A DNA stretch of 61,398 nt, filler included, from Dugesia japonica (Eukaryota), in the NCBI GenBank assembly GCA_001938525.1. It is 6 parts of 6 records of this genome, joined end to end, with 100 filler letters (N's around TTAATTAATTAA, not from the genome) between each part and the next. Parts side by side here need not be neighbours in the genome. Positions count along the whole stretch, not along the records: positions 1 to 11,878 come from MQRL01422867.1; 5 more parts are not named here. One strand, given 5' to 3'. How positions within the stretch are numbered: position 1 is the stretch's first letter; each line of letters opens with the position of its first letter. Shown in pieces: positions 1 through 56,500 of the stretch. The position numbers and the translations under genes are program-made. The notes beneath the pieces were generated by a model that worked only from the letters and a program-made list of their open reading frames with translations, was not told the origin of the DNA and ran no database searches.

Positions 1-75
1 ATACTAGATAAAGGTAACCATTAAATAATACATAATAACAATAAAGTAATGACTAATATTTATTTAAGGAAACTT

Positions 76-290
76 TTAAATTGAACAATAATCGTTTTCA
101 TCATCATCATCTGTAAAGTTTTTATCATTCACAATGGTTTCTTCAAAATTCATATAATTTTCCTCTTCTTCAGTTTATACAAATTTCAGTACTTCGTCAA
201 CTATTAGAGTTGTATATTCTTTAATAATGAATACAATTTCTTTTTTCACTGCAATATTCATGTTTTTTTAAGCATTTTCAATCAGTATAT
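76..290 (-). pseudogene. Small decayed ORF with acidic C-terminus, divergent from the TBP-like gene
   Basis: Minus strand reads ...IVFIIKEYTTLIVDEVLKFV*TEEEENYMNFEETIVNDKNFTDDDDENDYCSI*, with internal stops. No family recognised. Confidence 0.3.
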
Positions 291-314
291 CGATTTTGTT
301 TATTGTTGAAAAAG

Positions 315-339
315 TATAAATAGACCAAAATAATCACTT
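315..339 (+). promoter_or_regulatory. TATA box (TATAAATAG) plus initiator-like TCACTT upstream of the TBP-like gene
   Basis: TATAAATAG at 315-323, TCACTT at 334-339, ATG at 353. A similar TCACTTTTCAAATG precedes the ATG at 7486. The AT-rich background limits confidence. Confidence 0.4.
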
Positions 340-352
340 TTAATATGTAATT

Positions 353-791
353 ATGTTGTTGTCAAATATAAATTATAAAGGATATACTACTGAAAGTTTG
401 AATAGTCTTCAATTAATTATAAACCAAAACAATGTGTATTAAAGTATTCCGATTTTACAATAATTATTTTTCCAATAGAAAAATGTCAAATAATGGGTTG
501 TAAAAACTATTAGAAAACAAAGAACTTCCATTCAATATAATTGTNAAAGAAATACAATCGGTGACGGTGACCACTTCCTTACAGTTGTCAATAAATTTAC
601 AGAAATTGGCTGAAACATCAAATTGTATTTATGAACTGGAAATATTTCCAGATCATCGATTAATACTATCCAATCGTCTATGTGTTAATGTTTTTCATTC
701 TGGGAAAATAGTAATAACCGGTTTAAAAACTTAAGATTTTTTTGAGGTTGTAAATATTATTCAAAGATATTTATTATATTTGATAAATTAA
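353..791 (+). pseudogene. Miniature TATA-binding protein (TBP)-like gene, disrupted by 2 frameshifts and 1 stop
   Basis: Manual translation: MLLSNINYKGYTTESLNSLQ/NYKPKQCVLKYSDFTIIIFPIEKCQIMGCK/LLENKELPFNIIVKEIQSVTVTTSLQLSINLQKLAETSNCIYELEIFPDHRLILSNRLCVNVFHSGKIVITGLKT*DFFEVVNIIQRYLLYLIN*. The second half matches TBP repeat 2 (KIQN..., YEPELFP, LIFVSGKVVLTGAK). The first half matches repeat 1 (LQNIV..., LIFSSGKMVCTGAK). Confidence 0.8.
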
Positions 792-987
792 ATGTATTAA
801 CTTTTTTCATTATGTCTTGTTTTATAATTAATAGAATTTATATCTAAATAATTAAGTCATGCAATACGTATACATAATATATGCACGTCATAAGCAATGT
901 AGATGCAATTAATACATCAATATTATTGATTAGGTAGACTTATATATAAAGAAAAGTCATAATTCATGTTTTCATAATTTTATAACA

Positions 988-1690
988 ATGATGAAAATGA
1001 ATGATTCTGAAAATAAAATGATGGAGGAGAAAAGATAAAATATCTTAAAATTATCCATCCAACAACAACAACATCATCGAGGAACACAAATGACCAGTGA
1101 GTATCCATTCCACCTCAACTCAATTCTCGCCAACAAAATGGATAAATATCTACATGATTGTAGATATTTAATTTCCGAAAAAATTATATATGTGATTTCA
1201 GAACATAAATACCATCGAAAGAAATTCGAGACATTAAGCGAATGGGAAATATTAGAATATAGATATTTATTAGAAAAGGATATTGAAAAAGGAATTCATG
1301 CTTTAAGTCAAGTAAGAAAAATAATGATAAAAAAATATTTTTTTTGTAAGTTCAATTGTTAGAAATGTTATTACAAGAAAGCAAAAACGAAAAGAACATC
1401 AATTTCCTTACCAGATAGGTACCATATCAAACGTGTCAAAAATAGTTGAAGGGTTGGCTTTTGCGCTCAAACTTAAAATGCCCACTCCATTAGTCAGCAC
1501 CACGGCTAATATGATGATGAAGAAATTTCATGAAGAAAAGCCATATGATCCTAGAGAAATAGTTCTACAACAAAAAATATTTAATCTCAAAATAGTGTCA
1601 GATGCATTACAAGTGGTGAAAGAGTGTGATTTACTTCTAGATGGAGAAATCGGTGATCTAAGTAGTAATAGTAATATAAAACAACTTTAA
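988..1690 (+). pseudogene. Decayed orphan ORF of about 230 aa within element A
   Basis: ORF-track pieces 1090-1362 and 1433-1690 can be joined through stops and a frameshift. Upstream in-frame ATGs at 988-997, TATATATAAAG at about 941. No family recognised. Confidence 0.4.
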
Positions 1691-2435
1691 TATATATATA
1701 TATATTTTGTTTAGTTTGTCGTTTCAATCATCTGTGAATTGAGGAAAACGAAATACGACGACGATAGCGATCATATTTGTTTTTCATATAAATAAATGTT
1801 TAAAATTGTTTTATTGTCTTTTTTATTGTTATTGTTTTTAAATAAAAGTACAATTAATAGTAAATTATTTGTGTGTTCTAGTTTTTGAACATTAAAATAA
1901 TATATGTAAGAAATTATCAAGTTTATAGTTTATCAAAACTATTAAAACCATAATTTTATAAAATATTTTTTAAAATAATAATACTTTAAATGAAAAAAAA
2001 TTTACAAATTTAAAAAATTAAAAAAAATTTTCACATTTCAAAATTTTCATTTACATTTCTACTAAGAAAAATATCGACATCCAATTACAAAAATAACTTT
2101 TCCAAAAGTATAGTGTAAGTTGCTCAAAAACATGGGAGGACACGAGGACAGGAAATTTGGAACCTTATATCGTCACCAATTTTCTATGGAAAAAGTTCAA
2201 ATTAATATTAAACTCTCCATATTTTTCTCAATTTTTAAACATTTTAAAATTTTCAAAAATTCAAAAAGAAATTTTTGTTTTTTCAGAAAAAATTTTAAAA
2301 AATATTAAAAAAATTTTCTTATTCTATCATCAGATTATCTGAACGCCCGTTTAAAAGGTACAGATATTACAGCAAACAGTGCGACTTTATTCCTCTTAGA
2401 TGCTGAGAAAAATCGATGAAAAGATATATTTGCAC

Positions 2436-2740
2436 GTAACCATGACAACCGTCCCATTCTTAGGAACTAAGGTTAGAAAAAAATCTTAAAAAATTAAAAA
2501 AAAAATATAAAATTTTTTTGGTTGCCATGGCAACAGCTGCCATAGGTAAGGCTACCTTGGATACAATTACTCAATATGTTTCCGCGCACCATCGCCCTTA
2601 GTTACTGCGCAAAATTAATTTTTCTGTCACCGAAACGGTTGCCGTGGAAACGGTCCCGATCACGGTTTCGATATGGTTGCCATGGAAACGGTTGCAATTA
2701 AAGTCGCGATCATGGTCGCGGAAATGTTGCCAATGGTTAC
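2436..2740. promoter_or_regulatory. Cluster of RFX X-box motifs
   Basis: GTAACCATGACAAC 2436-2449, perfect palindrome GTTGCCATGGCAAC 2521-2534, GTTGCCGTGGAAAC 2638-2651, GTTGCCATGGAAAC 2676-2689, GTTGCCAATGGTTAC 2726-2740. Confidence 0.6.
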
Positions 2741-3677
2741 GGTTCCACCTGCCCTCCTTCTGTTTTTGTTCTTGTGTCCTCTTTTCCACTACTCTGCTCT
2801 GTTGTAACTGATCGTTCAGCTTTATAAAAAATTGATCCGTACTAGTAAAACTATATTTTATCTTGTAAATATTACTAAAAATTTTTAAATTCTAGTTTAT
2901 TTCGCCTGAAGAAAATTCTGAAGAAAGAGTAGAAAATTGTGAATAAAAACAAGAAAATTCTGAAAAGAAAACAATAAGTGAGAACGAATACCAGTCCTCT
3001 TCAAGACCACAATTTTTTTATTGTAAAAATTGTTACACATTGTGAATGTATACCGGTTCTCATTAAAATCAAAATGATTGTTATCTACGATGAAAACAAA
3101 TATTAGATTGTTGTCTTCGGATTGTTCCAACTACAATGAAACAGAATAAAATTGGTATTATTTATTTTTTTAAAAATATTATTTATTTTATTTTGTAAAT
3201 ATTATTTATTTTATTTTGTACATATTATTTATTTTAGTTTGGCATTAATAAGAAAGTAAAGTTGAACCATATAGAAAAAATCATAACGTACAGGACCAAA
3301 ATTATTGAATGAGTGAACAAAGAAATGCAACATGATTACAAATTAAACAATGAGGAATGCAACTCAGATGCCGATTTAACAAAGAAATATTTCAGTTGCA
3401 ATTTCAACAAAGAAAATTGCAGTTGTAATTTTAACAAAAACATATCCAATGCAGATTCAAAATGCTTGTAAATAAAATTAATTTTTTTCTTTTTATATAT
3501 AATTATGACTTTAGTTTCAATTATAGACAACATAACTGAATTTATTGAAATCTCTTATTCAGACGAAAATCGACAAATACTTGTAAAAAATAGTCAAGGT
3601 AATAGTAAATTACTTATATAATATATGTTCTGTGATTCTTAGAATACATTGTATGACAAATTAATTCTAAATATTTA

Positions 3678-4383
3678 ATTTTAATATTGATTAATAAAAA
3701 TAGAAGTATTACCACCAGTTTTTGTTTTTCTTTCAATCTGACATTTGTGTTCTTTTTCAAACGCAAAGGATAGAGACTATAATTGTATTTCAAGCCTGAT
3801 TTTGTTAATTTGTTCAGAAATTTTATAATCTAAGTCAAACTTTAAACCATTNGATACTTTTATTATATCTTCTTCATAAAACTGGTTTGCTACAGTTGTC
3901 AGATCAAGATTAAACAATTTTACCAAGTTATGCATTAGGAAACCTATGTTTTTAATGAATCCATATTAAAATCTAGTTTTTTGACGCTTTCTTCTTTTCT
4001 TAATAATACCAAACTATCCATTAAAAACAATTTTCATCAATTGATGTAAATCAGCTTCTAGGAGTTTCTCCAACTTATGTTGATAGAGTAATAAATCATT
4101 ATTTGAAATCTCTTCAAAAGCATCCATGAACATATAAAGATTGTAAACATTTTTCAAATTTTTTGCTTTTATTTGCTTTACAATTGCTTAAGAAATCTTT
4201 ATAATTCAATCTTACGTATTTATCCTCAGTATTTGGACTTAATTATGAAAGAACTTTCAGAATTTTGGATTGAGTCATTTTGTTCTTGTATTCTTTTTCA
4301 AACTCTTTATTTTCCCAAACACAAATATTAATATTTTTCACTATTTCTTCTTGTTTAAATGATAATGCATTTATTTTGGTCAT
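3678..4383 (-). pseudogene. Decayed orphan ORF within element A
   Basis: Starts MTKINALSFKQEEIVKNINICVWENKEFEKEYKNKMTQSKILKVLS*..., with a later open stretch GFIKNIGFLMHNLVKLFNLDLTTVANQFYEEDIIKVS. Multiple stops and frameshifts. Confidence 0.3.
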
Positions 4384-4556
4384 ATTTTAAATTGATTTAG
4401 AAAATCATGAATTTATAGAGATGTCGGTGTGTCTACATGAATCTATGTAATTAAAATTAATTAATCAGATTGATTAAAAAAATGGAAATAATTTTGATTG
4501 GATATTAAAACCTATATATTCGAAATACAAATGAAATAAAATCATTTATTTTCAAA

Positions 4557-4922
4557 ATGTGTTAAATATTTCTTGGAAAATTTACAGATGTTGACGACAA
4601 TAATCAAAATGCATAAGTTTATCCAAACTTAGAATATGATGAAAAAGAATGGCCAACAACCGCAGATGAAGAGAAAAATTTTTTGAAGCTACGAGTAAAT
4701 TATTGTTTACTAATTTTTACTAAAAATCTTCAAATACATTTGATAAAGGTTTGACTTAATTTCATTTTAATTATATTAGTTTGTTTTAGATTTGTTTATA
4801 GAATTACTCGGACTTCTTTATCCATGCCTAAAGGATGATATAATTTATTGTGCACCATAATTAATTTGGTACTAAATAAAAAACTGACCAGAGTGGACAT
4901 AAAAAAGGTCATGAATATATAA
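4557..4922 (+). pseudogene. Decayed two-exon orphan gene with 41-nt candidate intron (4749-4789)
   Basis: Exon 1 ...VYPNLEYDEKEWPTTADEEKNFLKLRVNYCLL; intron GTTTGA...TTTTAG; exon 2 DLFIELLGLLYPCLKDDIILLCTIINLVLNKKLTRVDIKKVMNI*. Joining requires one frameshift. Confidence 0.35.
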
Positions 4923-5100
4923 AATAAAAATCATAACAAATATATTGACTGTGACTACTTTTCTGGAAAGAAGAAAAATTTAAAGATAAAATGTTTATCA
5001 ATTTATGTAATTAATTCCATATTATTAAAAAATTGTTAGTTTAAACAGTATTTATCTTTATTATTATCTTTAATAATTCAAAAAAGAATTTAAAGAAAAA

Positions 5101-5340
5101 TTATGAGTCATGATTTATAAAAACAATGAGTCATTATTAACACTTTGAAAATTTTCAACCAATCAGAATCGATGATACTAAATCACTGGCTTTGAAAAAA
5201 CTTTAAAAAAAACGATGAATCATGGTCTATAAAAACGATGATTCATCGTCTTTGTTCCAGTCATCGATGACTCATACTGATGAGTCAATGTCTTTGTTAT
5301 AAAAGTTCTTTGGCTAGGGGGGTATCCAGTGCGCTACTAT
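5101..5340. promoter_or_regulatory. Element terminus with clustered AP-1 sites and a CCAAT box
   Basis: TGA(G/C)TCA at 5104, 5127, 5268 and 5281; near-matches TGAATCA and TGATTCA at about 5216 and 5238; CCAATCA at about 5159; G-run, then terminal CCAGTGCGCTACTAT. Confidence 0.55.
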
Positions 5341-7260
5341 TGCCCTTGTTAATGAGTTGTAATACGGTATTCGGAAAAATAGAGACTCATGAGATTTATA
5401 ATGATAATCAATGATATAGAATTGCGGATTCTGAAAACCTAGATATAAGTGAAATTGGTAAATAATTTATCAGATGCATGATAATGGAACACTCAGATCA
5501 GAAAATTATTTTTAACACGAGTAAATAATGGATTTTTACTAGAGATAAAGAGAAAATGGCCGTGCCTAAACGTTTAGTAACAGATGGACTTACAATCGAT
5601 AATAATGAATACATGTGGTTAAGATTATATATGTAAGAAGGTTGATGTAAAACTTTACACACCGAAACTATACTCGGATATGTAGAAGAGCTTATTCAAA
5701 ATAAAAAAGTGTTTGAAAAGGTATCACTTAAACAATTTTTTTCTGAAAAACAAAGAACATATGAAGAAATTACAGAATATGCTGCAGAAAATTACAAATG
5801 ATATGGAAGTTGAAGACAATTACTACGATATAGACAAAACATTAGCAACCTTTGAAAGGAATAAAGATGTATTTAGTCGATATAAGATGATTGTGGGTAA
5901 AACTGATATGATTAAACATAAAATAGAAACAACCGATAGCAGACCAATTGTTTTCAAGCCACGAAGAATACCAAAAAGACTCAAAGAAGAAGTAGAACGT
6001 ATGGTAAAAGATTTGATAGATGTTGGTGTTGTAAAGCCGAGTACGTCTCCATGGAACTTTCCACTTTTAGTGGCGAAAACGAAAAACGGTGATAACCAGA
6101 TGTGTGTTGACTACAGGGCACTGAATGCTAAAACAAACCGACCAATATTGCTAATACCATCATCAGAGGAAATATTTGACAGTATTGCTAGAGCTAAATT
6201 CATTTCAACTCTGGATCTTTCGAGTGGATATCACCAAGTGCCGATAGCTAAAAAAGATCAGGAAAAAACTGCATTCAGCACAAAGTTTGGACAATATAAA
6301 TTTAAAAGAATGCCGTTTGGGTTATGCTCAGTACCAGCGATTTCAGTGATTTATGAATATTGTATTGCGAAATGAAAATTGGAAAAGTGCGTAATATATT
6401 AAGAGGATGTTTTAATATTCGGTAAAACTGTAGAAGAGCACAACAAAAGACTAGAACAAATATTAAGAAGAATAAGAGTAGCTAGACTTAAATTAGCACC
6501 AAATAAATGAAAATCTTTACAGAAAAAAATACAATATCTCGGACATATAATAACTAAAAGTAGAATCGCAACAGATTTTGATAAGATAATGGCAATCCAA
6601 AAATGGGTGATTCCTCAATGTCGAAAAGAACTTCTAACATTCTTAAAGTTTTGTAATTATTATAGGCAATTCATAAAGAATAATGCAAATTTATCAGAAC
6701 CTCTCATTTCAAAAAGAAAAGAAAGAAAACAAGTTTCAGTGAACAGATGAAAATAAAGAATATTTTTACAAGCTACGTAATAGGTTGACCAACAGAGGAT
6801 TGATAATATATCTTGGATACATATGCTTCTCACAACGTAATTGGTGCTGTACTTTTTTAAGTACAAGATATGTATCTAATACAATACTGCATATGGAAAG
6901 CTGAGCTGCAAATCTTTGATATGACGATAGTATTTAGAAAAGGTCGTGAACATATTAATGCTGATGCATTTTCATGATTACCAAATTGCGAGCAGTGCTT
7001 AATAAAATATGAGGATCCAAAGAGGAAAAGAAATGTTAAAATAAACAAAACAACAGACAAAGATGAGGAAAAAAGTATACGCTGAGAAAACCTTATAAAT
7101 AAAATATACCAGGAAGACAAATGGGAACAAAAAGAGATATAAATATACTAATAATATTACAGGCTCTAGAAAGAAACGAGAGAACACTTCGTGACGTAAA
7201 GGTAAATAAGGAAATGCAATTGTATTGAGGGAAAAAGAAAAAACTGCGAAATAATGATAA
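5341..7260 (+). mobile_element. Ty3/Gypsy LTR retrotransposon pol relic (RT, RNase H)
   Basis: ORF 5713-6375 has SPWNFPL, MCVDYRALN, LDLSSGYHQV, KTAF and RMPFGL. Downstream degraded VIY*EDVLIFG (YLDD), RNase H LDTYAS..IGAVL and HINADAFS*LP. Confidence 0.92.
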
Positions 7261-7485
7261 ATGAATAAATGATTCTATTTATATAGTTTTTAAATGATGT
7301 GTTAATAATTAAATGTTGTTGATACAGTAAAACAATTGATTCCAGAACATTCTATTTGAACGTATCCAAATAATCAATTAATTTATTTAAAATTAAATTA
7401 ATTTATTTTATAATTATTATTTATTTTTCTAATTATTATTAAAGTTTTTTAAATTCATTAATTATACCTAATATTCACTTTTCAA

Positions 7486-7800
7486 ATGTTACCCTTAAAA
7501 CAAGAATTGACTATCAAAAATGATTTATTGAAAGAACATCAATAGAATATTTTAGGTAAATTCTTTTTAAAATTATTATTAATAATACTATTTTTAGATA
7601 TTGTAAAAGAAGTACTGGAAGATGATGTTCAAGATTTTAAAGAAAAATTAAAAAGTTGGTCAAAAGAAGATTATGGAAAGAATGCGAGAAATCTTACCAA
7701 TTTAGATATAGAAGAATATCTATTAAAGTTTTATGAAGTGATCAATAATATATGTGATTGTTACTATTGGTGTTATGAATTACTTAAAGCATGCTTGTAA
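7486..7800 (+). pseudogene. Small orphan gene with 42-nt candidate intron (7556-7597) and one premature stop
   Basis: MLPLKQELTIKNDLLKEHQ*NIL|DIVKEVLEDDVQDFKEKLKSWSKEDYGKNARNLTNLDIEEYLLKFYEVINNICDCYYWCYELLKACL*. Intron GTAAAT...TTTTAG. The intron is in-frame and stop-free, so splicing is not proven. Confidence 0.4.
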
Positions 7801-9110
7801 AATAGAAACAATCAAACAATATCGATAAGCGATCAGATTTATTGAAATAAATATATTTTTGAAAATTTGTTTGTTTTTACTTTAGTTATTTTAAGTAAAT
7901 CATTGTTGTTATTATTATGTGAGTTACCTCTATTAAATATTGGTTTTATCAAATTATTTTATTAAGATTAAAGTTGTTATTTCTTTAACCATGTTTTTCG
8001 TACTCTAAATAAAATTCTCCATCGAATAGACGGTGTGATGTTCAAATTTGAGGAACTCTTTCCAAAATTCATAATTTCTTCCCAGACTCCCAAAAAGAAG
8101 TTCATTTTTTTTTCTTTATAACTTTTTATGTATAATGTTTGTTGATTTTTAACCATGTTATTCTTACTGACCGTAAAAGTACTTATCGACTTGTATCAAT
8201 TTCGATAAATTATGAGGTACTTTTGATATTTACGAAAAATGTTACCAAATCCGGGAGGACGGTGGTACATATTCGTTAAAAAAAATTTTTTCCTAAACGA
8301 TATTTTAATTTTATACAGTCCTTTTTTTTTGAGTAAAATAATACCAAATTTGAGTCGATAGCTGTTATCTGTGCACAGATGTCTGAGCACTAAAATCTGA
8401 ATTATTTTTCCACCACAAAAACTCATTTATTTCATCGAGTATTACCTTTGACAGTTTAAGATTGACATATTTGGAATCAGTAAAAGATTCTATATCGAAT
8501 GGACACTTTGTTGACATATTTGAGAANAAACANNTTTTCGAAACATTTTTATTTGTAAAAAATTATTGTCGTAAAATTCTAAGCAGTTTGATATAAAATC
8601 TTTGAAATCTGAGATAAAGAACATTCAAAGATATAAATTGTTCTTCCAGATTCCCATAAAAATTTCATTTAAAAAATTTTAAATTTACATATTATTTAAA
8701 CAACATGAACGGTTTACCCCTGATTCATTTAAAAATTCCTATGAAACATTTTTACCAACTAAATACACAGTAAAAATATTGTTGTTTATAAAGACTGAAA
8801 AATTCTACTACTTAAAAAGCCTGAAAAATTCTACTGTTTCAATAGCTTATAAATATTTTACCAAAATAAATACACAATAATAATATTGCCGCTTAAAAAG
8901 CCTATAAAAATTTTCCCAAATAAATACACGACAAAATTAATTACATTATGTAATGCACACAAAGTAAATTTTTAAAAATTTTATTACTTCATAGGTTTTC
9001 TATTTTATTTTTTGAAATAAATTTCAATTTTCAATTTTCATAGGTTTTAAAGAATTTTAACATAATCTAAAATGCAAAAAAATGATTATATATTTTGAAA
9101 AAACATCTCT

Positions 9111-10858
9111 GATTTTACAGCTAAATACATGTGTACAACATGCAACAGTTGCAATCTAAGCAGAGAATTAATTATGCAATTACCGGTTGTATTCCACAAT
9201 TTAAGAGGATATGATATGCACCATATTCTTAAGGATGGACTCCGTCAATTCCCACATTGGGACCTCAGCTGTATTCCAACTACAAGTGAAAACGTCTTGT
9301 GTCTTATTGCACATAAAACAAAATCACTTACCATTCGATGTATCGGTTCATATCAATTTATCAATTCATCTCTAGATTCAGCTGTTTAAAACCATTAAAA
9401 CAACTATTTTAACATCACAGGAATTTATGGACAGTAGAGTTATAAGGACAAAGTGGATTATCCCATACAATCACGCTACTAGTTTGCAAGTACTGGTTAA
9501 TACAAAGAAAATGCCGCAAAAATGGGATGGAGTTAGGGATGAAGAACATGAAAAGCGATAGATATGTGGAAAATCTTGAAATCTAAAAACGTACTAGACT
9601 ATATGCTGGTGTACATGAAGTTAGACGCCTTTCTCCTAGCTGACGTTTTTCAGCAATTCCTAGCAAATTCATTAGCTCATAACTGTCTGGAACCCTTAAA
9701 TTTCTTTGACATTCCTGGTATGAGCATCTAGGCATCTGCTCTGATGACTTTAAACGAACCCATCGAGCTTTTGACTGATAACGACATGTATACTTTTTTC
9801 GAAGGTGGAATTAGAAGTGGGCTCACCTTTGTCAACAAACATCATGTTATTTCAGATGAAAACACAGAGTTGTTATACATCGATATAAATAATCTGTATG
9901 GTTGGGCTTTGAGCCAGAAGTTACCATATAAAGATTTTGAATGGGTATATTGTGGATTAGAAGTAGTTTTAGAAAAATGTAAATATGCAAATCCTGAGCC
10001 GTTGCAATATTGATACACTCTAGAAGTTGACATTGAGATTCCCAATGAACTTTACGATTTTATTAAAGACTTACCCATTGCAGCCGAACATCAATGTGCT
10101 CCAGGAAGTAAGGTCAAGAAATTAATGCTGAATCATTATTCAAAGTTCAATTACGAAGTGCACTGGAGATCACTGCAAATGCACTTGCAATTAGGTGTGC
10201 AAGTTACAAATGTTCACAGGGCAAGTAGATTTTCACAAGATCATATTTTTAAGCAATAAATCGATGAAAATACTACAGTAAGAGCTAAATGTGTCGATGA
10301 ATTAAATGAAAATTACTGCAAGCTCATGAACAACAGCTTATATGGCAAATCAGTTGAAAGTCTGAAAGAACGAATAAACTGGAGAATATGTAATTCAGCA
10401 AAAAAGTTAGTGACCTTTACCTCAAAACCAGAGCTTAGAAGAACCATTAAGATCGATAAAAATTAAATAGTGGTACAATTAAATAAAGACATTGTGTGTC
10501 TCAAAAGACCGAGTTAACTAGGACAGACAGTTCTTGATTTAAGCAAATTACGAATGTATCGACTTCAATATATTGAGTTAGAGAATGGTTTTTCTGAGAC
10601 CGAAGTGGTATAGCTTACTTAGCGAGAAGGAATCAATGAAGGTTAAAGGCATAACAATAAAATGTAATGACATTAGACATCAGTCATACCTAGATTGTTA
10701 CAATTACAGTAAACAGATCTCAATGAAACAATTTAGAATAGGAACAAAAAACCACCAGTTGTACAGGTCCAAAAGTCGCATTGACCAATAATGACAACAA
10801 AAGAGCATGGACTGATAAAAACATAAGCGTGCCATATGGGCATTATTCTTTCGCGTAA
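9111..10858 (+). pseudogene. Protein-primed B-family DNA polymerase (Polinton/Maverick/adintovirus type), decayed and internally deleted
   Basis: CNSCNL, ExoII FHNLRGYD, ExoIII YMKLD..LLADVF, EGGIRSG, motif A YIDINNLYGWALSQKLP, motif B KLMNNSLYGKSVE, GQTVLDLSKLRMY, LRPKWYS, KVKGI, C-terminal DNKR...SVPYGHYS*. The DTDS motif is absent (deletion at about 10582). Confidence 0.93.
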
Positions 10859-11279
10859 TAAATAAGACTCAGTTGAAAAGAAGCACATTTACAGATAATT
10901 TATTTTGTTATTTAAACTAATTAATTTTTACTATTAAGATCTAGTTTACAATGAAGATACTGCTTTAAACAAATGTACATGATGACTGAGTTTATCTGTA
11001 TATTATCAAAAATATATTTTATGTTTTGATTTGTCTTTTCATGTGTCTTTTATATATTATTATTAATATTGTCTGATAAGCATCTAATGTTAATATTGCT
11101 CGGAGCGATTAATATTGATGTTAATATTGCTCAGAGAAAATTCAATTCAAAATGTAAACCATCGATTTTCTGTGAAAAATCCATAAAAATCATTACATCA
11201 CTTAATTTAAATAGAAATCTGAAACATCATAAAATTTAAACAAATCATAAAATATGAATTAGTTTAAACAAAAAACAAA

Positions 11280-11497
11280 TGACCTTGGCATAACCTCATC
11301 AGAGCATATCGATGACTCATCAAAATCAAGTCACTCGACCTTGACCTTAAAAATTTAGACCAATAAAAATGTTTAAAATCTGGTCCACTGGACCTAAAAA
11401 TTCCGAAAAAACGCGTGTGCGACCAATAAAAACTCTAAAAATCGAAGCCAGTAAAAATTCTCTTTCTGGGGGACGGGGTGGCCCAGTGCGCCACTAT
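11280..11497. mobile_element. Terminus of pPolB-bearing Polinton-like element B
   Basis: About 640 bp downstream of the pPolB stop. Contains TGACTCA, TGACCTT motifs, two CCAAT boxes, a G-rich tract and terminal CCAGTGCGCCACTAT (11483-11497) matching 5326-5340. Confidence 0.6.
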
Positions 11498-11878
11498 CCA
11501 TCTAATGTTATGAAATAATAATTTAAACAAAAATTTCACGAATAAATAATATTTTAAATAAAAAGAAATTATTAATTTGTTGAAAATGTTTACTTCTGAT
11601 AGCTAAAACCAATGTCTACTAAATATGTTTTAAAACAAAATGATAGAAAAGCTTTTAAATGCAAAGCAAGAATTATCCATCTGTTTAATCTTATCCTTAA
11701 ACCACTCGTATCCTAAATGCAGAAACAGATGGACAACTATAGCATCTTTAAACTTATTCTTTTGTAGTTGTCGATGCTTTGGTAAATCCTTACATCCTTT
11801 TATTTGCCATTCACCAAAAGAATTATTGCATAGTGTTTCAAGGCCAATCCAAGAATAAGGTGAAAATACATCTGAATC

Positions 11879-14194: not shown

Positions 14195-14881
14195 ATGTGG
14201 CATCATCCTAGACTGAGTTGGGATGATTTGAACATGAAATCTGTAAAAGTTATTCGTATTTCTGAAATTAAAGTTTGGTCACCTGACACATACGTACATA
14301 ATAAGTATTTTGTTTTAATTTTAAATTTTCACTTGATCTTTCTTTTAGTGCCGATGATGTAAGGTCTGGATTCTTAACTGGGGTATTTGTGTTAATCCAT
14401 TCTAATGGAGATATTCAATGGCCTGTTAGAACTCAACTTAAAACATTTTGTCCTATGGATATCACAATGTTTCCTTTTGATTTACAAAAATGTTTTATTG
14501 AAATCGGATCATGGGCCCATATAGGTCAGCAACAGATACTTTACAATACAACTTTAGCAAATAATACAAATGAAGAATCTGCTGATTTGTCTAGTTATAC
14601 TGACAGTAGCGATTGGATTCTTATTTCAGCTACAATACAAAGTAGTCGTAATAACGGCATTAGATTGACAATGACGCTTCAAAGACGCAGCTTTTTCTAC
14701 ATATGGATTTTTATTGTTCCATTCATAATGCTTACTATTCTTTCTTTAATGACATTTTGTATGCCATCTACTTCTAATGAAAAATTAAGCCTTAGTCTCT
14801 CAGTCTTTATGGCATTTTCTATGTTCATGATAATGATATCAGAGAAAATTCCACCTGCAACAAAACATGTTCCTCTGATTG
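14195..14881 (+). CDS. Cys-loop ligand-gated ion channel (nAChR-like, non-alpha) subunit; two internal exons 14195-14304 and 14349-14881
   Basis: 110-nt exon MWHHPRLSWDD...KVWSPDTYVHN, then a 44-nt GT-AG intron, then in-frame NADD...CPMDITMFPFDLQKC (Cys-loop), GSW, TM1 RRSFFYIWIFIVP, TM2 NEKLSLSLSVFMAFSMFM, and VPLIG followed by a GT donor. The 5' exons and TM3-4 were not found. Confidence 0.93.
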
Positions 14882-15309
14882 GTAATCATTTATAATTTCT
14901 ATTAGAAATTTTATATTTTAATACGTTTTCTCCTTTAATAATCCTATGTAACTTATATTTTATCCAGAAATATCATTGTTTTCTAAAGGTGAGTTTAAAA
15001 ATAGAAAAGAGCTTTTATATAATAGCTACATCATAGCTTAGATGTTAAAATGTTTACATAGTGGAATACCAAATTCTATGCAATAATATAAAATAGCTGT
15101 TTATTCAATTTGAGCACTTATTTAACGCTTTTATTTAACTTTAATCAAAATAGATTATTTTCGTTTTAAAATAATCTAATTATTTTCATATTTCTGAGTT
15201 ACTTTAGATTATAAACCATTTACTTTGCAAAATATTAAAGTTAAATCTGTTCAGTTATTCAAAATATCAACAAAAATTAGTAAAATTCTATAATGTCAAT
15301 AATTTAAAT

Positions 15310-30052: not shown

Positions 30053-33000
30053 TGCTGCTGCTGCATATATTGTTGCATGGAGGAATCTGAATAGGTTCTG
30101 GTCATCTGATAATTATTCATCATGGATGGGTTATTATAATTTGGTGGAGGAACAGGAGTAACAACACTTATGTCTTCCATTACATTAGAATTTGAATTAT
30201 TATGATATGGAGGAGGAGGAGGCAACCCTATTGTTTGTTGTTGATTGTTATGGAATGTCGATAACAAATTGTGATCTTGTGCTGGTTGGCGCTGTTGAAT
30301 TTTGCTTTTTAAAGTTTGGTTAATGTTCAATTTGGATGTACGATTTTGACGAGTCATATTAATCTGGTTAGCTCTATTCGAATCGTAAACATGGGTTTGT
30401 GTGAAATGCGGTCTTTGAATGTAGTTAGCTTGCATTTCTGGGAAATTCGGTCCTCCGTAGTTAGCGTATTCCATTCCGTGACTCGGATACGCATGAGTGA
30501 TTGCCATACCGATATTTCCATTTGGTGGAATCATAGGAATTCCGGAACTATGACGCATTATCATGTTTTGATTCGGCGGTAAAATAGCTGGAGACGGAAC
30601 ATTTCTCGACATCGGATGATGAGATCCAGANNNNNNNNNATTATTATTATTATTGTTGTTGTTACTATTATTCATTGGATTGTTCGATTGATTATTAGCC
30701 GACCGTTTCGGTTTTTTACGTCTCGTTCCACTTATACCGGAACTGGCATTACTTCTCGGTCTTTGAAGGGGTTGCATAGCAACAGTGTCTTGAATTTTTA
30801 CACTTCCCGGATTGTTGTTNNNNNNNNNNNNNNNNNNNNNNNNNNNNNNNNNNNNNNNNNNNNNNNNNNNNNNNNNNNNNNNNNNNNNNNNNNNNNNNNN
30901 NNNNNNNNNNNNNNNNNNNNNNNNNNNNNNNNNNNCGGGTTGCTGATATCTTTAATGTCTTCCGGCATAATTTCCGGGAAATTCGTGTAGTAATTATCGG
31001 GATGGATCAATTTATCCGGGTGATCGTGTCCAATCATTAGATTGGCTTGTTCTTCTATCGGGAGAACCGGAGTGTCGCAACTGACAGCGGCAAACCACGA
31101 CAACGAAAACAGGTTTTTAATTCCTTCAATAACTTCCCAGGGGTTAATTCGTTCTTTTCTTTGAACAGCGCAACCTTGTTTCCCGCTTTTCTCGGCAGTA
31201 GTCAATCGATACTGTTGGGATTTATGCGGCATTCTCAACGGAACTGTTACAATCACATCGTAATTGTTTTTGAAACACGGTAACAGAAACGGTTTAATCA
31301 ATTCGACGCCTTCGTAGTTTAATTTATCACAGATTTCTTTACGGAGTTTCTTGGAGATTTGATAGAATCGGATAGTGCTGTTGTTACCGGGTTGAGAGAA
31401 GAGCGTATGAATCAGAGTGCTGATCATATCGAGCACGGTATAGAACAACTCGGAATGGTCACTGTGCATCTCTACCACTCCGTAAATGATCAATTTACTC
31501 AACAACAAACACCAATCCCCGCTGAACTCTGAGGAATCTTGGATCCGATCGAACAGATAACCGACCAATGCCAATCGAGATTTCATGCTGGTGTGGATCA
31601 AATGTTTCACTCGTAAATCGTCCGGCATTTTCTCGGTTTCTTTCGCATTATCGATATAGTATTCGATTTGATCCGACAAAGATTTCAGGAATTCCAATTT
31701 GTTCTCGTCTTTCGCTAGACAAACGACCAACAACGAAATGAACGGAGGATAGGTCAATATCAAAGAGCTTTTCGTCAGATCGTTTTCTTTGTCTTGATAG
31801 TTTTTATGAGTGCAGAAATGTTTCCCGCTTTCGAGTTTCTCTGATGCAGCGACAACCAATTGCCGCTTGAAATTATCAAACGGTAGTTTATTGATCAGCG
31901 AGGGGATTAGATAGGCGGAATTGATTTCAATCGATTCTGTCGGTTTCAAATCATCGTCAAACATCGATATTTCCTGTTGATTGAACTGGAATTCGGCCTG
32001 AGTTTTGAACAAGTTGATAATGTCTCTCGACACGTTCTCGATCACGTCCTTTCGTTCCTCTTCTGGGATCTGTGTCAGCAGCAATTGGATCTTCATTTGG
32101 TCGAAATGTAGAGACCAGAGATTGAGATTGGTGAACGTGCGGTTCATAGTATCGATTATATCCTTGCTGGTGCAACTCGTCTGCCAGAGGTGCTCTTTCG
32201 GGTGACAGATTATGTTGAGGAGATTTCTTGCTTGGCTGTTGGAGATGTTCTTGTCGATTAGAACGTTATCTCGTATGAGTCTCGACGGAGTTTCCTGGGA
32301 GAATTTGATTCTCACCCACGACACGCAGCAGATCTCTCGTAACACTCGCAATGTGAAGTTCCAGATCTTCATATTCGTGAAATAGTTGTTGCTGTTCATG
32401 TTCTCTTCATTGCTATTGCTGCAGTTGCTGTTCTCGGAATTCAGATCTCCGCGGTTCCGCTGTTGCTGCTGTTTATTGAACAACAACAACGACGACGACG
32501 GAGGACCGAATGAGATTTGATTGTTTTCCGATAAATCGAAATAATCCTGATCTTGTAGTCGACCTTTATCACTGTGAACAGCTAACATTTTCAATAGATC
32601 CACCAACAGTTCTGTTGTTACTTTCTGTAACGATGACGACAGCAGATTGGCGTCTTCCTTTTTGAATGCGCTATTGATATTGTTACCGTTACTGTTCTGT
32701 TGCTGTTGTTGCTGTTCCATTGTAAACAAACGGAACAGTATGTAACTCGCCAACCGAGTCGTTGGGACTATTGCCGGACAAACTATCGATTGTTGATCGA
32801 TACCTTGTGCCATCGCGACGCAGATAACTCTACCGAGAAAATCGATGAAATTGAAACATTGTCTCGCGAGCATTGTCGCGATAAGAGTGGAGATATTCTC
32901 ATAGAACAACAGATCATTCGACACGAGTAAAGCGGTGAATCTATTGACAAACGGTTCGTATCCGGGTAACGCATTAGTCGGTAAGAGTAAACTGTATATT

Positions 33001-35972
33001 GCAGTCATCCATTCTCCCGGTAACATCGGTACGTTAGCGGCAGTTTCTACGATAATCGTGTTGATTCTCGACAACTGATCGATATCAGACAACTGGGCAA
33101 TGTGCAGTAAGCAGTTGGCAACAAAACTGAATCTCACATTGACATTCGACTGTAAATCGGAGATTATATCGTGACAAGAGAGAACATTGTTCTTCAATAG
33201 ATCCATTCCGAAACTTTCCACATAATCGATATTTGAACTGCGATCTTTGTCGGGTTTCACCATGCGGAACAGCGATTCGATTTTCTTGATCATCGGTACT
33301 AATGGAGCCTGAGATTTCAGATTGGAACACGACTGGTAGAGCAGTAAAATCAATGCGCATGTGCACCGGTTAACGTAGACCATTGTCGATGAGCCACCTC
33401 CGAATGTGTTACGAACCATAACGAAGAGAGTTTGAAAGATTCGACTGCGAGATTCATTCATAAACATGAGAACCGATTGATATTTGAGCAGGAAACCGAT
33501 AATACAGATTCGGAATCGGGAGCAGTACGAGCTGATCGGTGAGAAATTCGTGATGAATCCAGCACGTGAGATGTGATCGATGAGTTTGATGAGATTATGC
33601 GAGCATTCGTCGATAATCCGGATGAGGAGCGAGTAGTTACACGACTGTTCGATCAGACACAGCAGTGTGTCGATGATTTTCGGATACGGCAAATACATAT
33701 TGTTCGGGATTTGTTGTTTGTTTGAGAGGATAACGTAGATGTTGAGAGCGTTAACGCAAACCGGGAGACATTGCGACAATACGCACTCCATATCGTAATA
33801 CGTGAGACATTTGAATCGGGATTGGATCGATTCTGCCAATCGATCGATCAACAGAGATTCTTCTCTCGGATCTCGCCGGGTTTTCTTACGGGATTTCTCC
33901 ATTTGGATGATATCGAACATGTAACCGCGTTTCGTGAACATTTTACCGATATCCTTTGCAAGCCGTCTGAGAAACTGTTTGTTAGCGTCGCGAGTTCTCG
34001 AGGAACAATAGAGTTTCTGAGCTCGTAAATTATGCTCATGAACGTAATCATCGTTGAACGGAATCGGGAAATGCATCAAGTACTGCAAATGCCGATTGTA
34101 GAGCCGATAATCGATTGTAGGAATCGAGGGTAACATTTGATTGAGTCCACTACATTCCGATCGGACAGAATCGGGATTATCTGTTGATGCTCGATCGAGT
34201 TCTGGAGATTTACATGAAACATTGACTGCCGATAAAAATCCACCAATAGGAGCGAGAGGTAAATACGATACAGATTCGAATAATCCACGTGCGATCATAT
34301 AGCTCATGTAATCGTTTACCGAGAATAATTCCCGCTCGATTAGTTCTCCGAATAAACAAACGAGATTTCTGAACGGTTCGCTGTCGCTGGTGACTGATGA
34401 ATCGATACAGGGTGCTTTCGTGTCGAGGAAATTGATCAATGACGTCTGTATTGATTGTTGTAGTTGTTGCTGTTGTTGTAATTTCTCGATAATATGTGCC
34501 ACAATGATCGCTCGATGAGAACCGGTACGCATCGGTGAAACTGCCCATTCACACAACAACATGAGTAACAAACTGTGATTCTCTACAACACCCAATCCTT
34601 CAATGATATTCGAATCTTTGTAGCAAGTGTAATCGTATCGATCCAATAAATCCAATACTTTTATCAAACTGGCAGCAGTTTGCTCTATTGAACATTCAAA
34701 TGATTCGTGTTTCCATTGGTTTTGTACTGCTAAACTTCGCTGTAACACAAATTGCTCGAGTTTAGCTATTGTATCTCGATAAAGATTATTTTCCGGCCCA
34801 GGAGGACACGGTAAAGCCGACAATGCGCATGGTAACATGTCTAAAGGAGATCCGTGCAGATAACCAGGACTTTTCAGATTATTATAAACAACTGCACAAG
34901 GACATTCGAGACTCAATGATATAATCAATCCACTCAGAGAAAACACAACAGTTCTATGAGTTGGACAATTCGAATATTCCGCATAATAATCCGTTATACA
35001 TCGATCGNNNNNNNNNNNNNNNNNNNNNNNNNNNNNNNNNNNNNNNNNNNNNNNNNNNNNNNNNNNNNNNNNNAGAATTTCACTTTCTTTAAATCTATCT
35101 CCAAAACCTAAAAGAAACGGTAGATAAAATTTCATCATTTGTTCATCGTCGGCATATTTTTCATTGGTTTGAACAAGCCATTGTAAAACTTCAGTATGAT
35201 CCAATAAATCATCATCATACATCGCTACCATTAATCGCATGAGATATTCAAATTCAGAAACTGCCATTTCGTATTCATGATCTATATTATTTCTCATTAA
35301 TTTTGTCCTAATTGTATCCAATTTTTCATTTAATATTCTAATAAAACTAGCAACCCAATCNGAAGAACTGTCAACATTTGATCTTGTTTTCTTTTTATTG
35401 CTTTCTGCTTGAATTGTAGCATGCATTGCACTAACTTTAATAAACCATATTGCTCTTGTTATTGGTACTTGATATTTAAATATTTCTTTCAACACATCTT
35501 CTTTTTTATGAAAATATGGTATACGTTTATTGATTAATTCAGCATAAGGAACTGTTTCGGAAAGTTGAACCATCCAATCGAAAATTATTTCCTTCGACTT
35601 TTCTAATGCTGGAATACATTGCAAATCTTTGTAAAGAGTTGTGACAGATGCTTTCCGTTTAGTTGTGTCTTGTTTGATGTTATTATTATGGCTTCTAACA
35701 ATCACAGCTTGCATATAATTATTTAATTCAGAAAGATATGGTNTAGAAATGAAATCAAAACCAATATCTTTTGCTGATTCATGTTCCTCAACAACGGGTT
35801 TACTGTAATTAAAACCTTCTCTAACACTGTACTCAGTTAATAAGTCTTCTTTCTGTTTATATTCTTGCTGATAAACATCAGGTGGACCTAATATAACTTT
35901 TTGTTGATTAAACCCTTCAGTCAATTTCAAGCATTTTAAGGGGTGAGTTTCCAAAGAATGATAGCAACTCAT
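30053..35972 (-). CDS. MED12: Mediator of RNA polymerase II transcription subunit 12 (CDK8 kinase module), 3'-truncated at the segment edge
   Basis: N-terminal [19 protein letters not shown]...[76 protein letters not shown], then a P/Q/N-rich tail. ORFs 30798-35972 and 30001-30777 join across the N gap at 30820-30935, where [14 protein letters not shown] leads in-frame into MQPLQ. Confidence 0.95.
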
Positions 35973-42675: not shown

Positions 42676-43772
42676 ATTGCGGTCAAACTACAATTTCCGT
42701 ATGGAACACTATGATTTTTGTGTGTCCATACTCTCTTATCGTCATTGTTGGTTAATGCTATTTTTTATCTCTTAAAACTAAACAAGTGGTGATTTATGGT
42801 GCCAATTCTAAATTGTTCTACTGAGATCAATTGATTTTTATTGTAACAATCTAGATACAACTGGTGTGTTAAGTGGTTATCTTTTAATGTTACCCCCTTA
42901 GCCTTCATGCTGGCCTTTTCGCTAAGGAGACTATAACATTTCGGTCACAGAAAAACCCATTACTTGTATCTCTTACCCTTGCTTTCGTCTTTGAATTTCT
43001 CTACTACTGAATTTAGTTTGTTGTTATAAAGCAGATGTTCTGCATCAAATTTTTGAAGTGTCCAACAACTCATCCTGAACCATCAGTTTTAACAATCTTT
43101 CCAATCTAATACCTTTCCCTTCCAGGAAAAAGCTGTCGGTATCTCCTGTCACTATATTTATGATACATTTTTCATCTTTCATATATTTCCAAAGCTCGAT
43201 GTATTGGAGCTGAAACACTCTTAACTTATTCAAGTCTAACACCGTTTGACCAATATAACTAGTACTATTGAGACAAACTTTATTCTTATTCAACAATACT
43301 GTAATTAAATTCTGGTCTATTTTAATTGTTTTCTTAAAGCTTGGGTTTGAAGCGTATGTAATAAGCATTTTGATGAATTACACAGTCTAAAACTCATCCG
43401 TTTCTTTAGATTTTCTACTGTTCTTCCGTAGAGGCTGTTGTTTAAAAGCTTATAATAGTTTTTGTCTAGGTCTGATGTACTTTTTGATCTTAGCTCAGTA
43501 TTTTCATCTATATACTTCTTGAAAATACAATCTTGAGTGAAATTTACAGCTCTATGTATATTAGTAATCCTAACACTTAGTTGCATGTACAGTTGTAATA
43601 ATCGCCAATGTACAACATAATTCAGTTTGTTATTATGTGTTATAACAGCTTTTTTACCTTACTTCCTGATGGACTCTGATGTTCGGCTCCAACAGGTAAA
43701 TCGCTTAAATAATCATGTAACTCGTCTGATATTTTAATATCAACTTCTACTGTGTAATTTAAACTGTTAAAT
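42676..43772 (-). pseudogene. Second protein-primed PolB (Polinton-like) C-terminal half, decayed
   Basis: YTVEVDI, DLPVGAE, YKLLNNSLYGRTVEN, IGQTVLDL, TGDTDSFF, KFKDE, PKCYS, KAKGV, DDKR, SVPYG. Colinear with 10010-10858 but clearly diverged. Confidence 0.93.
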
Positions 43773-55363: not shown

Positions 55364-56302
55364 TTTCAGGCATACTTACTTCTGAAGTATCTAAATCCAT
55401 ATTAACAAATAACGAATGATTTATAATATTTACTTTACGACAAAAATTAAATTCAAAATACTGTTAATTTAAATTTCGCTTTCTTTTAAACTCTTCCTTA
55501 AATAAATCAATCAATTAAAACACGCGCAAAATTTTGTTATTTATTAATTTTCCTCACAGTGGAAAATAAGAAAAAATATAGCTAAATAGGGGTAAATCAG
55601 GAAAATAGGAAGTAAATGACTATAGAAGGTGGGTAGATGGGCAAAAAGTGACAAAAATAGACTAATTAAGCATATTAAATGACTATGTATAGAATAAATG
55701 CGGTATAATTAGTGACTAAATTTACTCTATTAAATATTTTCTATGTCCAAATTCATATTTTTCAATGTTAAAACTTGTAATTTTTATAATAAGTCTATAA
55801 TTTGTCAATGATATTTCCATAGTTTTCCAATGATGAACCATTATTTTCTAATGTAAAACTCATATTTTCAATAATGATACCATATAATAATGTATAATTT
55901 ATAGTCAAATGGCTGATTTTACTGACTGATAATTATTTATTTAAAAGACATAATAAACCCAATAAAACCAAGGTGCACGCAGGGAAACCAAGAGCAAGCA
56001 AAGATGTAGGCAAATAGTTAAGGATTTTATTGAAAGGAATACATATATTTCATAAGATAAAACCCATATTTTTAATGTTGAAACCTAAATTAAACTCAAA
56101 TTGTAATGAACTCCATTATTTATTCAATAAATTAAATCATAACTTATTTATAGTATAGTATTGAGAAACATTAAACCATTAAACAGATAAAAGACTATAA
56201 ATCCTAAATACTTTGGAAAATCAAGTAACTCCTCCGAGGAATATTAATCAATATATATTTACAATGATATAAACAACTTTATATTATCTATTTAAATACA
56301 AA

Positions 56303-56500
56303 ATGAATTTGAAAAGAAGTGAAACATTCTTTACAAAAATTAATGCATTCTCTAACTACGAAGAGAATGAAAATTCTGCAAGCATTTCCATCGTTTGTTA
56401 TAGATGATTTACTCGAGATTATTATAAATATTGTTCGTTGTAATGTAACATTAAACGAAGAGAATAGAAAAGCATTGGATAAACATAAATTCTTTGTTTT
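56303..56500 (+). pseudogene. Small basic ORF of the type found in Polinton/adintovirus genomes (fragment)
   Basis: LQKLMHSLTTKRMKILQAFPSFVIDDLLEIIINIVRCNVTLNEENRKALDKHK resembles, from memory, the R..IL......I..L.E...N...GNV.L......L.KHK pattern of a small Polinton ORF. Not database-verified. Confidence 0.55.

Follow-up and report, generated by a model that had tools for sequence, protein, structure and literature searches.

The closest described counterparts of the small protein family considered here, which we call mini-TBP, are the cellular TATA-binding protein (TBP; PF00352; PDB 7egb_P, 1ytb, 1mp9) and the TBP-like proteins of viruses. In the available sections of Ravarani et al. 2020 (PMC7221094), the two C-lobe glutamates of TBP are assigned to TFIIB, and residues of the N-lobe helix H2 are assigned to TFIIA, Mot1, TAF1, and Brf; according to the same sections, viral TBPs have for the most part lost these two glutamates (about 40% kept) and pair with a viral TFIIB. 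The word "Polinton" is absent from the main text of that article. Mini-TBP shares with cellular TBP the two-lobed saddle, the N69, F116, F190, and F207 places, which are kept across the family, and both C-lobe stirrup glutamates, whereas cellular TBP measures about 180 aa with H1 and H2, and mini-TBP measures 146 aa, lacks the N-lobe H1 and H2, and has no F99 equivalent. The two also differ in the DNA face, on which mini-TBP has fixed polar and basic residues, and their identity is 22 to 29%. The nucleocytovirus TBPs, as far as the accessible sources describe them, resemble mini-TBP in being a virus-borne TBP fold that has kept the L5.1 Phe and lost the N-lobe regulatory surface; they come with a viral TFIIB, whereas mini-TBP keeps the glutamates, and no TFIIB gene was seen in its partial contigs. 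Identity between mini-TBP and its BFVD matches was 9 to 18%. The closest working analogy is provided by ORF24/BcRF1/UL87, the TBP mimics of beta- and gammaherpesviruses, which, according to the accessible part of a preprint (bioRxiv 10.1101/2025.08.25.672222), recognize TATTWAA, a variant of the TATA word, for host Pol II and likewise have a polar DNA face. In that same part, ORF24 is large and multidomain, is without the TFIIB glutamates, and binds directly to Pol II, in contrast to mini-TBP, which is a bare saddle with glutamates.

With adintoviruses/MELD viruses and Polintons, as covered by the accessible parts of Starrett et al. 2021 (PMC8502044), the shared kinds of gene are the A32/FtsK ATPase, a pX-like gene, the rve integrase, and the protein-primed PolB (pPolB). 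In the available text of that article and its preprint, TBP is a map label in a figure legend, given to a related element, and neither a TBP anatomy nor a promoter word is described; the terms "TBP" and "TATA" do not occur in the accessible part of the supplement. This label was the one mention of TBP in a Polinton-related element within the accessible texts found by our literature search, which covered sources other than subscription journals and Repbase, and both terms are absent from a 2026 Polinton-like virus survey (10.64898/2026.06.19.733378). The mini-TBP family is apparently undescribed and would be a new variant of viral TBP. As detailed below, the planarian copy is a dead one, and sequence comparison and structure modeling suggest that the mini-TBP of its intact relatives, carried in Polinton/Maverick elements, is probably the element's own promoter-recognition factor.

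The broken mini-TBP gene lies at positions 353..791 of the plus strand in 61,398 nucleotides of Dugesia japonica DNA, six joined parts with filler between them, which were analyzed as a whole (the window). It runs from an ATG at 353 to a terminal stop at 789-791 and consists of three natural pieces in successive frames. The reading frame changes at about 412-418 and again at about 501-504, an in-frame stop interrupts it at 732-734, and position 545 is a single N. The intronless TBP-like gene with two frameshifts and one stop proposed by the first-pass annotation was thus confirmed, and so was its TBP identity, since the third piece alone matched Pfam TBP with an E value of 1.6e-12 and 47.5 bits (cut-off, 22.9). 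The same piece matched 35 PDB sequences, every one a TBP-containing chain. A profile built from 115 intact relatives recognized the three pieces with E values of 0.0038, 1.8e-11, and 5.8e-28, and the next-best segment in the whole window reached an E value of 0.25, indicating a single mini-TBP copy. When translated with X at the breaks, the gene spans 145 positions and is 74% identical to its nearest intact relative, P0001, over 141 of them. The IIFP, EIFP, and VFHSG motifs and the acidic second stirrup with both its glutamates are all found, as had been claimed. Nevertheless, this copy is a pseudogene: of 31 columns conserved in the family, it differs in 6, of which 2 fall at the breaks, compared with a mean of 0.7 among intact relatives. 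The frame changes may in principle reflect assembly errors, and it is the stop and the four altered conserved positions beyond these changes that indicate real decay. Seven rows from three studies in a sequencing-run listing contain part of window 1-5400, none of them an RNA run. The window copy is a fossil, which matters solely as a marker of its family.

The fold was evaluated on a natural intact relative, P0004, which matched Pfam TBP at 72.7 bits in two stretches and gave an AlphaFold model with a pLDDT of 96. A Foldseek search of this model against the PDB returned TBP-containing entries for all of the top 44 matches (E<=0.001). The model superimposed on human TBP with a VIA Z score of 13.8 (rmsd, 2.6; 146 aligned), and yeast TBP was also matched at Z 13.8, bearing out the predicted TBP fold on a natural protein. 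The strand set of the saddle is complete, and helices are present in the C-lobe alone; no helix of at least 4 residues occurs before residue 83, so that H1 and H2 of the N-lobe are both absent. The expected reduction of repeat 1 and H2 therefore stands, but "shortened" does not describe it, as both helices are wholly lost in the model of the intact relative. A long-form relative, P0188, retains the N-lobe H2, which suggests a stepwise loss of helices.

Relatives were collected using the third piece as a query, and all six candidates were intact proteins of 144 to 146 aa with 61 to 70% identity. A profile of these six recovered 1,435 of 8,000 candidates at E<=0.001; the listing covers the best 120 of these, and cellular TBPs are probably included in the tail. 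Against representatives at 50% identity, it gave 1,861 matches, 211 of them at E<=1e-10. The family alignment comprises 115 of the first 121 proteins, with two near-duplicates and four short proteins left out. Intact mini-TBPs measure 144 to 160 aa, and 108 of the 115 aligned proteins fall within 140 to 160 aa. The 16 clusters that were looked up trace to contigs from ENA, JGI, Logan, MGnify, and NCBI, which are mostly short. Exact-pattern scans, which are insensitive, found no relative in IMG/VR (queries A1 and A2) or GTDB, and none was found by phage tblastn. P0004 is about 30% identical to a eukaryote-type TBP. In a quick tree of 110 rows, which were recruited by family likeness and include no named TRF2, host, or giant-virus TBP, 86 family rows stood apart from 24 cellular-type rows with an SH-aLRT support of 100, where labels were assigned by eye and two rows fell on the opposite side. 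This separation agrees with the earlier claim that the gene is not an ordinary host copy. Within the same tree, a group of 60 short forms, with a support of 90, lies among the longer ones; the grouping of the window copy with its six close relatives is supported at 99.

The genomic context of intact mini-TBP genes was obtained from a JGI scan, in which 3 loci (L001, L002, and L003) were recovered out of 376 pattern matches, on metagenome contigs of 3.1 to 5.8 kb. The gene order in L001 and L003 is small orphans, a divergent gene, TBP, further orphans, A32 ATPase, pX-like gene, and integrase. The ATPase was supported in both by E values of 6e-7 and 1e-6, with Pox_A32 above the cut-off; the pX-like gene had an E value of 0.005, below the cut-off, and the rve integrase of L001 had a Pfam E value of 4.3e-10. 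L003 ends in the start of the integrase, of which it holds the first 51 codons, and L002 ends in the start of the ATPase. No pPolB, protease, or capsid gene was seen together with TBP on these contigs, which are too short to reach such genes. The proposed linkage to Polinton core genes consequently holds for the intact relatives, through the ATPase, pX-like, and integrase genes, and it rests on one element family, as the three loci are 82 to 93% identical pairwise and count as one observation. Among them, the dN/dS of TBP was 0.20, 0.37, and 0.23, compared with 0.016 for the ATPase, on which selection is much stronger; these ratios indicate that mini-TBP is under purifying selection in this element family. 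A search of IMG/VR with the L001 ATPase, again by insensitive exact pattern, found no relative. The divergent gene, at L001 1696-2064 on the minus strand, encodes a conserved 122-aa orphan that is arranged head to head with the TBP gene in each of the three loci; it has no Pfam or PHROG hit and is a candidate partner or single-strand binding protein. L001 1-330, at the contig end, contains 14-nt tandem repeats, as expected within a Polinton terminal repeat. A further contig, L004, carries over positions 1-11721 an adintovirus-type Polinton (pPolB with endonuclease VII, rve-chromo, A32, and PLA2-like genes), and no TBP was found within this part.

The concave face, which reads DNA in TBP, is the best-conserved part of mini-TBP, with N5, N7, F40, R46, M48, R103, N113, and F115 present in 113 to 115 of the 115 relatives. 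Three of the canonical four intercalating phenylalanines are kept (F40 in 115/115, F99 in 114/115, and F115 in 115/115, in mini-TBP numbering), and no Phe occurs at the yeast F99 place in the alignment of 115, in agreement with the count reported for the window copy. The stirrup glutamates are nearly invariant as well (E95 in 110 and E97 in all 115). However, other places on the DNA side carry different residues from those of cellular TBP. The V122 place is Arg in all 115 and the I194 place is Arg in 113; the N159 place is Ser in 112, the V203 place is Cys in 114, and the L205 place is Asn in 114; the V71 and T124 places on the concave face are Asn and Met (112 to 115 of 115 each). In the accessible part of PMC2265533, Table 1 lists the yeast TBP substitutions V122R and I194R as DNA-binding-null. 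Judging from the alignment, the DNA-reading face of mini-TBP is rewritten, and its two fixed arginines match these yeast null substitutions.

A positioned word was found upstream of the genes of the mini-TBP elements. In L001, ATAAAC occurs between -20 and -45 in 8 of 13 genes, always 33 to 36 bases before the ATG, where 0.44 sites are expected and none of 2,000 shuffles reached the count; it also ranks first among all 4,096 hexamers in this contig. The word is similarly placed in 8 of 14 genes of L003 and in 3 of 6 genes of L002 (reached in 1 of 2,000 shuffles), and 15 of the 22 positioned sites have a T just before it. These counts refer to lists of chosen non-nested reading frames and to a word picked by eye. 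In the TBP-less L004, which is partial and more G+C-rich, ATAAAC was found in 0 of 11 genes. The sole minus-strand ATAAAC of L001 precedes the sole listed minus-strand gene, the one head to head with TBP, and is therefore not the polyadenylation signal of some gene upstream. The TBP gene of L001, L002, and L003 is itself without ATAAAC and has GTATAWA in its place. A comparable divergent promoter is seen in the window at 298..323, where a minus-strand ATAAAC (298-303) and a TATA box of the host type, GTATAAATAG at 314, stand back to back, the latter 39 bases 5' of the TBP ATG. L001, L002, L003, and the window (298-320) each have a single instance of this layout, and 7 to 34 of 2,000 random window stretches align equally well to it. 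ATAAAC is not enriched in the window block (1.7 versus 1.3 per kb). The earlier idea of a TBP directed to viral TATA promoters calls for revision, as the candidate site is TATAAAC-like and the putative reader has a DNA face with yeast-null changes; a host factor could also be the reader of ATAAAC.

To our knowledge, it is not understood how integrated Polintons, with neither an RNA polymerase nor a helper virus, activate their packaging and capsid genes. With mini-TBP as the element's own promoter-recognition factor, early transcription of mini-TBP would depend on host TBP at the ordinary TATA box of this gene. Once made, mini-TBP is predicted to bind the TATAAAC-type word upstream of the other genes and, by drawing in host TFIIB and RNA polymerase II, would activate the ATAAAC genes, the packaging ATPase presumably being among those switched on. 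Without helix H2, mini-TBP would escape control by Mot1, TAF1, and TFIIA/Brf1. We take the C at position 7 of TATAAAC to lie under the remodeled N-lobe, which presumes the orientation of the lobes. A broader version of the proposal, in which a widespread lineage of animal Polintons carries a private switch built on one 145-residue, naturally re-specified mini-TBP that reads TATAAAC, works with host TFIIB, and is neither evicted nor inhibited via H2, is conceivable on the present comparisons, and we place it somewhat short of probable. If true, mini-TBP would be the smallest two-lobed TBP, reached via stepwise helix loss, and the promoters would constitute sequence evidence for a timed early-to-late programme in Polintons. 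One small factor and a defined six-base word would make Polinton gene activation testable in vitro. Mini-TBP may also serve as a natural experiment on which parts of TBP are deletable (H1, H2, and one Phe), and it could illustrate how the minor-groove face may be re-specified.

Like its counterparts in giant viruses and herpesviruses, mini-TBP might instead act with an unrecognized element-encoded partner, TFIIB-like or an adaptor, in place of host TFIIB, which we consider unlikely. Almost all viral TBPs are paired with a viral TFIIB in the accessible sections of PMC7221094, and several helical orphans flank TBP in L001 and L003; however, no TFIIB Pfam hit was obtained among the scanned reading frames of L001, the contigs being partial, and host-type glutamates are kept here, whereas, according to the same sections, most viral TBPs have lost theirs (about 40% kept). 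A second alternative, to which we give slightly less weight, is a Polinton-borne decoy that reads no specific DNA and whose acidic stirrup would soak up host TFIIB or Brf and damp host or antiviral transcription. The null-like substitutions on the DNA face also fit a protein that has stopped binding DNA, and a decoy would agree with the near-invariance of both glutamates, the fixed changes matching yeast DNA-binding-null mutants, and the loss of one Phe. Yet a concave face that is the most conserved part would be needless for a pure decoy, and a positioned TATA-like word goes along with the gene.

Upstream of the window copy, at 76..261 on the minus strand, one or more decayed short reading frames face away from the TBP gene, with ATAAAC 42 bases before the ATG; they do not match the divergent gene of L001, L002, and L003. 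Two orphan reading frames of no recognized family follow the TBP gene at 1039..1690 (+), one of which, at 1331-1687, had no homologue found, and fragmented orphan frames of the same block lie at 3780..4930 (-), where three scanned pieces were without a PHROG hit; the PHROG search of 12 proteins gave zero hits overall. The sequences of L001 to L004 did not match the neighbours of the window mini-TBP, and no Polinton core gene was found in window 1-5340 or contiguous with the TBP gene. A decayed pPolB of the Polinton/adintovirus type is present at 9099..10850 (+), identified by tblastn with the pPolB of L004 (E value, 3e-54). It is a block separate from the TBP gene, 8.3 kb away and past a Gypsy insertion. 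The latter, a decayed Gypsy-type retrotransposon at 5357-7300 (reverse transcriptase at 5686; E value, 6e-11), begins right after the first candidate end described below. A second decayed pPolB occurs at 42690-43756 (-), its DNA 66 to 71% identical to 10014-10923, and a decayed remnant at 56238-56489 (+) matches the pX-like core protein of L001 and L003 (E value, 4e-9). The two pPolB remnants and the pX-like remnant indicate that this genome contains Polinton debris.

The first-pass annotation had the TBP block end in the same terminus as the pPolB element. A G+C-rich 15-nt word, CCAGTGCGCYACTAT, does occur exactly twice in the window, at 5326..5340 (+), the candidate right end of the TBP block, and at 11483..11497 (+), about 640 bases after the pPolB remnant; when 3 mismatches were allowed, at least two occurrences were seen in 4 of 100 shuffles. 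Polinton ends begin with AGT, and the two CCAGTGCGCYACTAT ends, read inward, start with AGT. The shared word is where the agreement ends, as the 350 bases preceding the two copies do not align, no inverted copy was found within the window, and the Gypsy element lies between them. Neither an opposite end nor a target duplication was seen in the window for either block, and a terminus-pattern scan, exact and insensitive, gave 0 matches. The word is real on sequence grounds and is a candidate terminus. Conceivably, mini-TBP is Polinton cargo elsewhere and the window copy sits in another vehicle, such as a Helitron-type element with the 15-nt word as its hairpin 3' end. Both word copies can be read by eye as a short stem, 7 bases, CTTG or CTAA, and T, no inverted partner lies in the window, and the neighbours match nothing in L001 to L004. 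We nevertheless find this improbable, as neither hairpin is significantly more stable than shuffled sequence (z, 0.95 and -1.06), the ends read AGT inward, the second copy follows a pPolB, and the promoter layout is that of the Polinton copies. Origin by retrocopying or duplication of host TBP/TRF2 followed by decay, or archaeal contamination, is largely refuted and very improbable, for although the gene is intronless and broken and the nearest cluster carries the label Archaea in the ESM Atlas, from one member of known phylum, P0004 is about 30% identical to a eukaryote-type TBP versus 74% between the window copy and the mini-TBP family, the family forms a separate tree branch with no relative in the insensitive GTDB scan, and its neighbours in L001, L002, and L003 include Polinton genes.

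Some further features of the window were recorded. Within the TBP block, five GTTGCCATGGCAAC-like words lie at 2436-2740, which we take to resemble the RFX X-box. Sub-terminal repeats at 5082-5290 include four TGA(C/G)TCA words, presumably AP-1-like, and another such word is found at 11313, before the second candidate end. At 30798-35972 on the minus strand, the Mediator subunit Med12 is encoded by one stop-free frame of 1,724 codons that crosses N runs, with about 43% G+C inside a region of 25% G+C. Finally, an exon of a neurotransmitter-gated ion channel, which together with Med12 is indicative of an animal host, is located at 14305-14895 (+).
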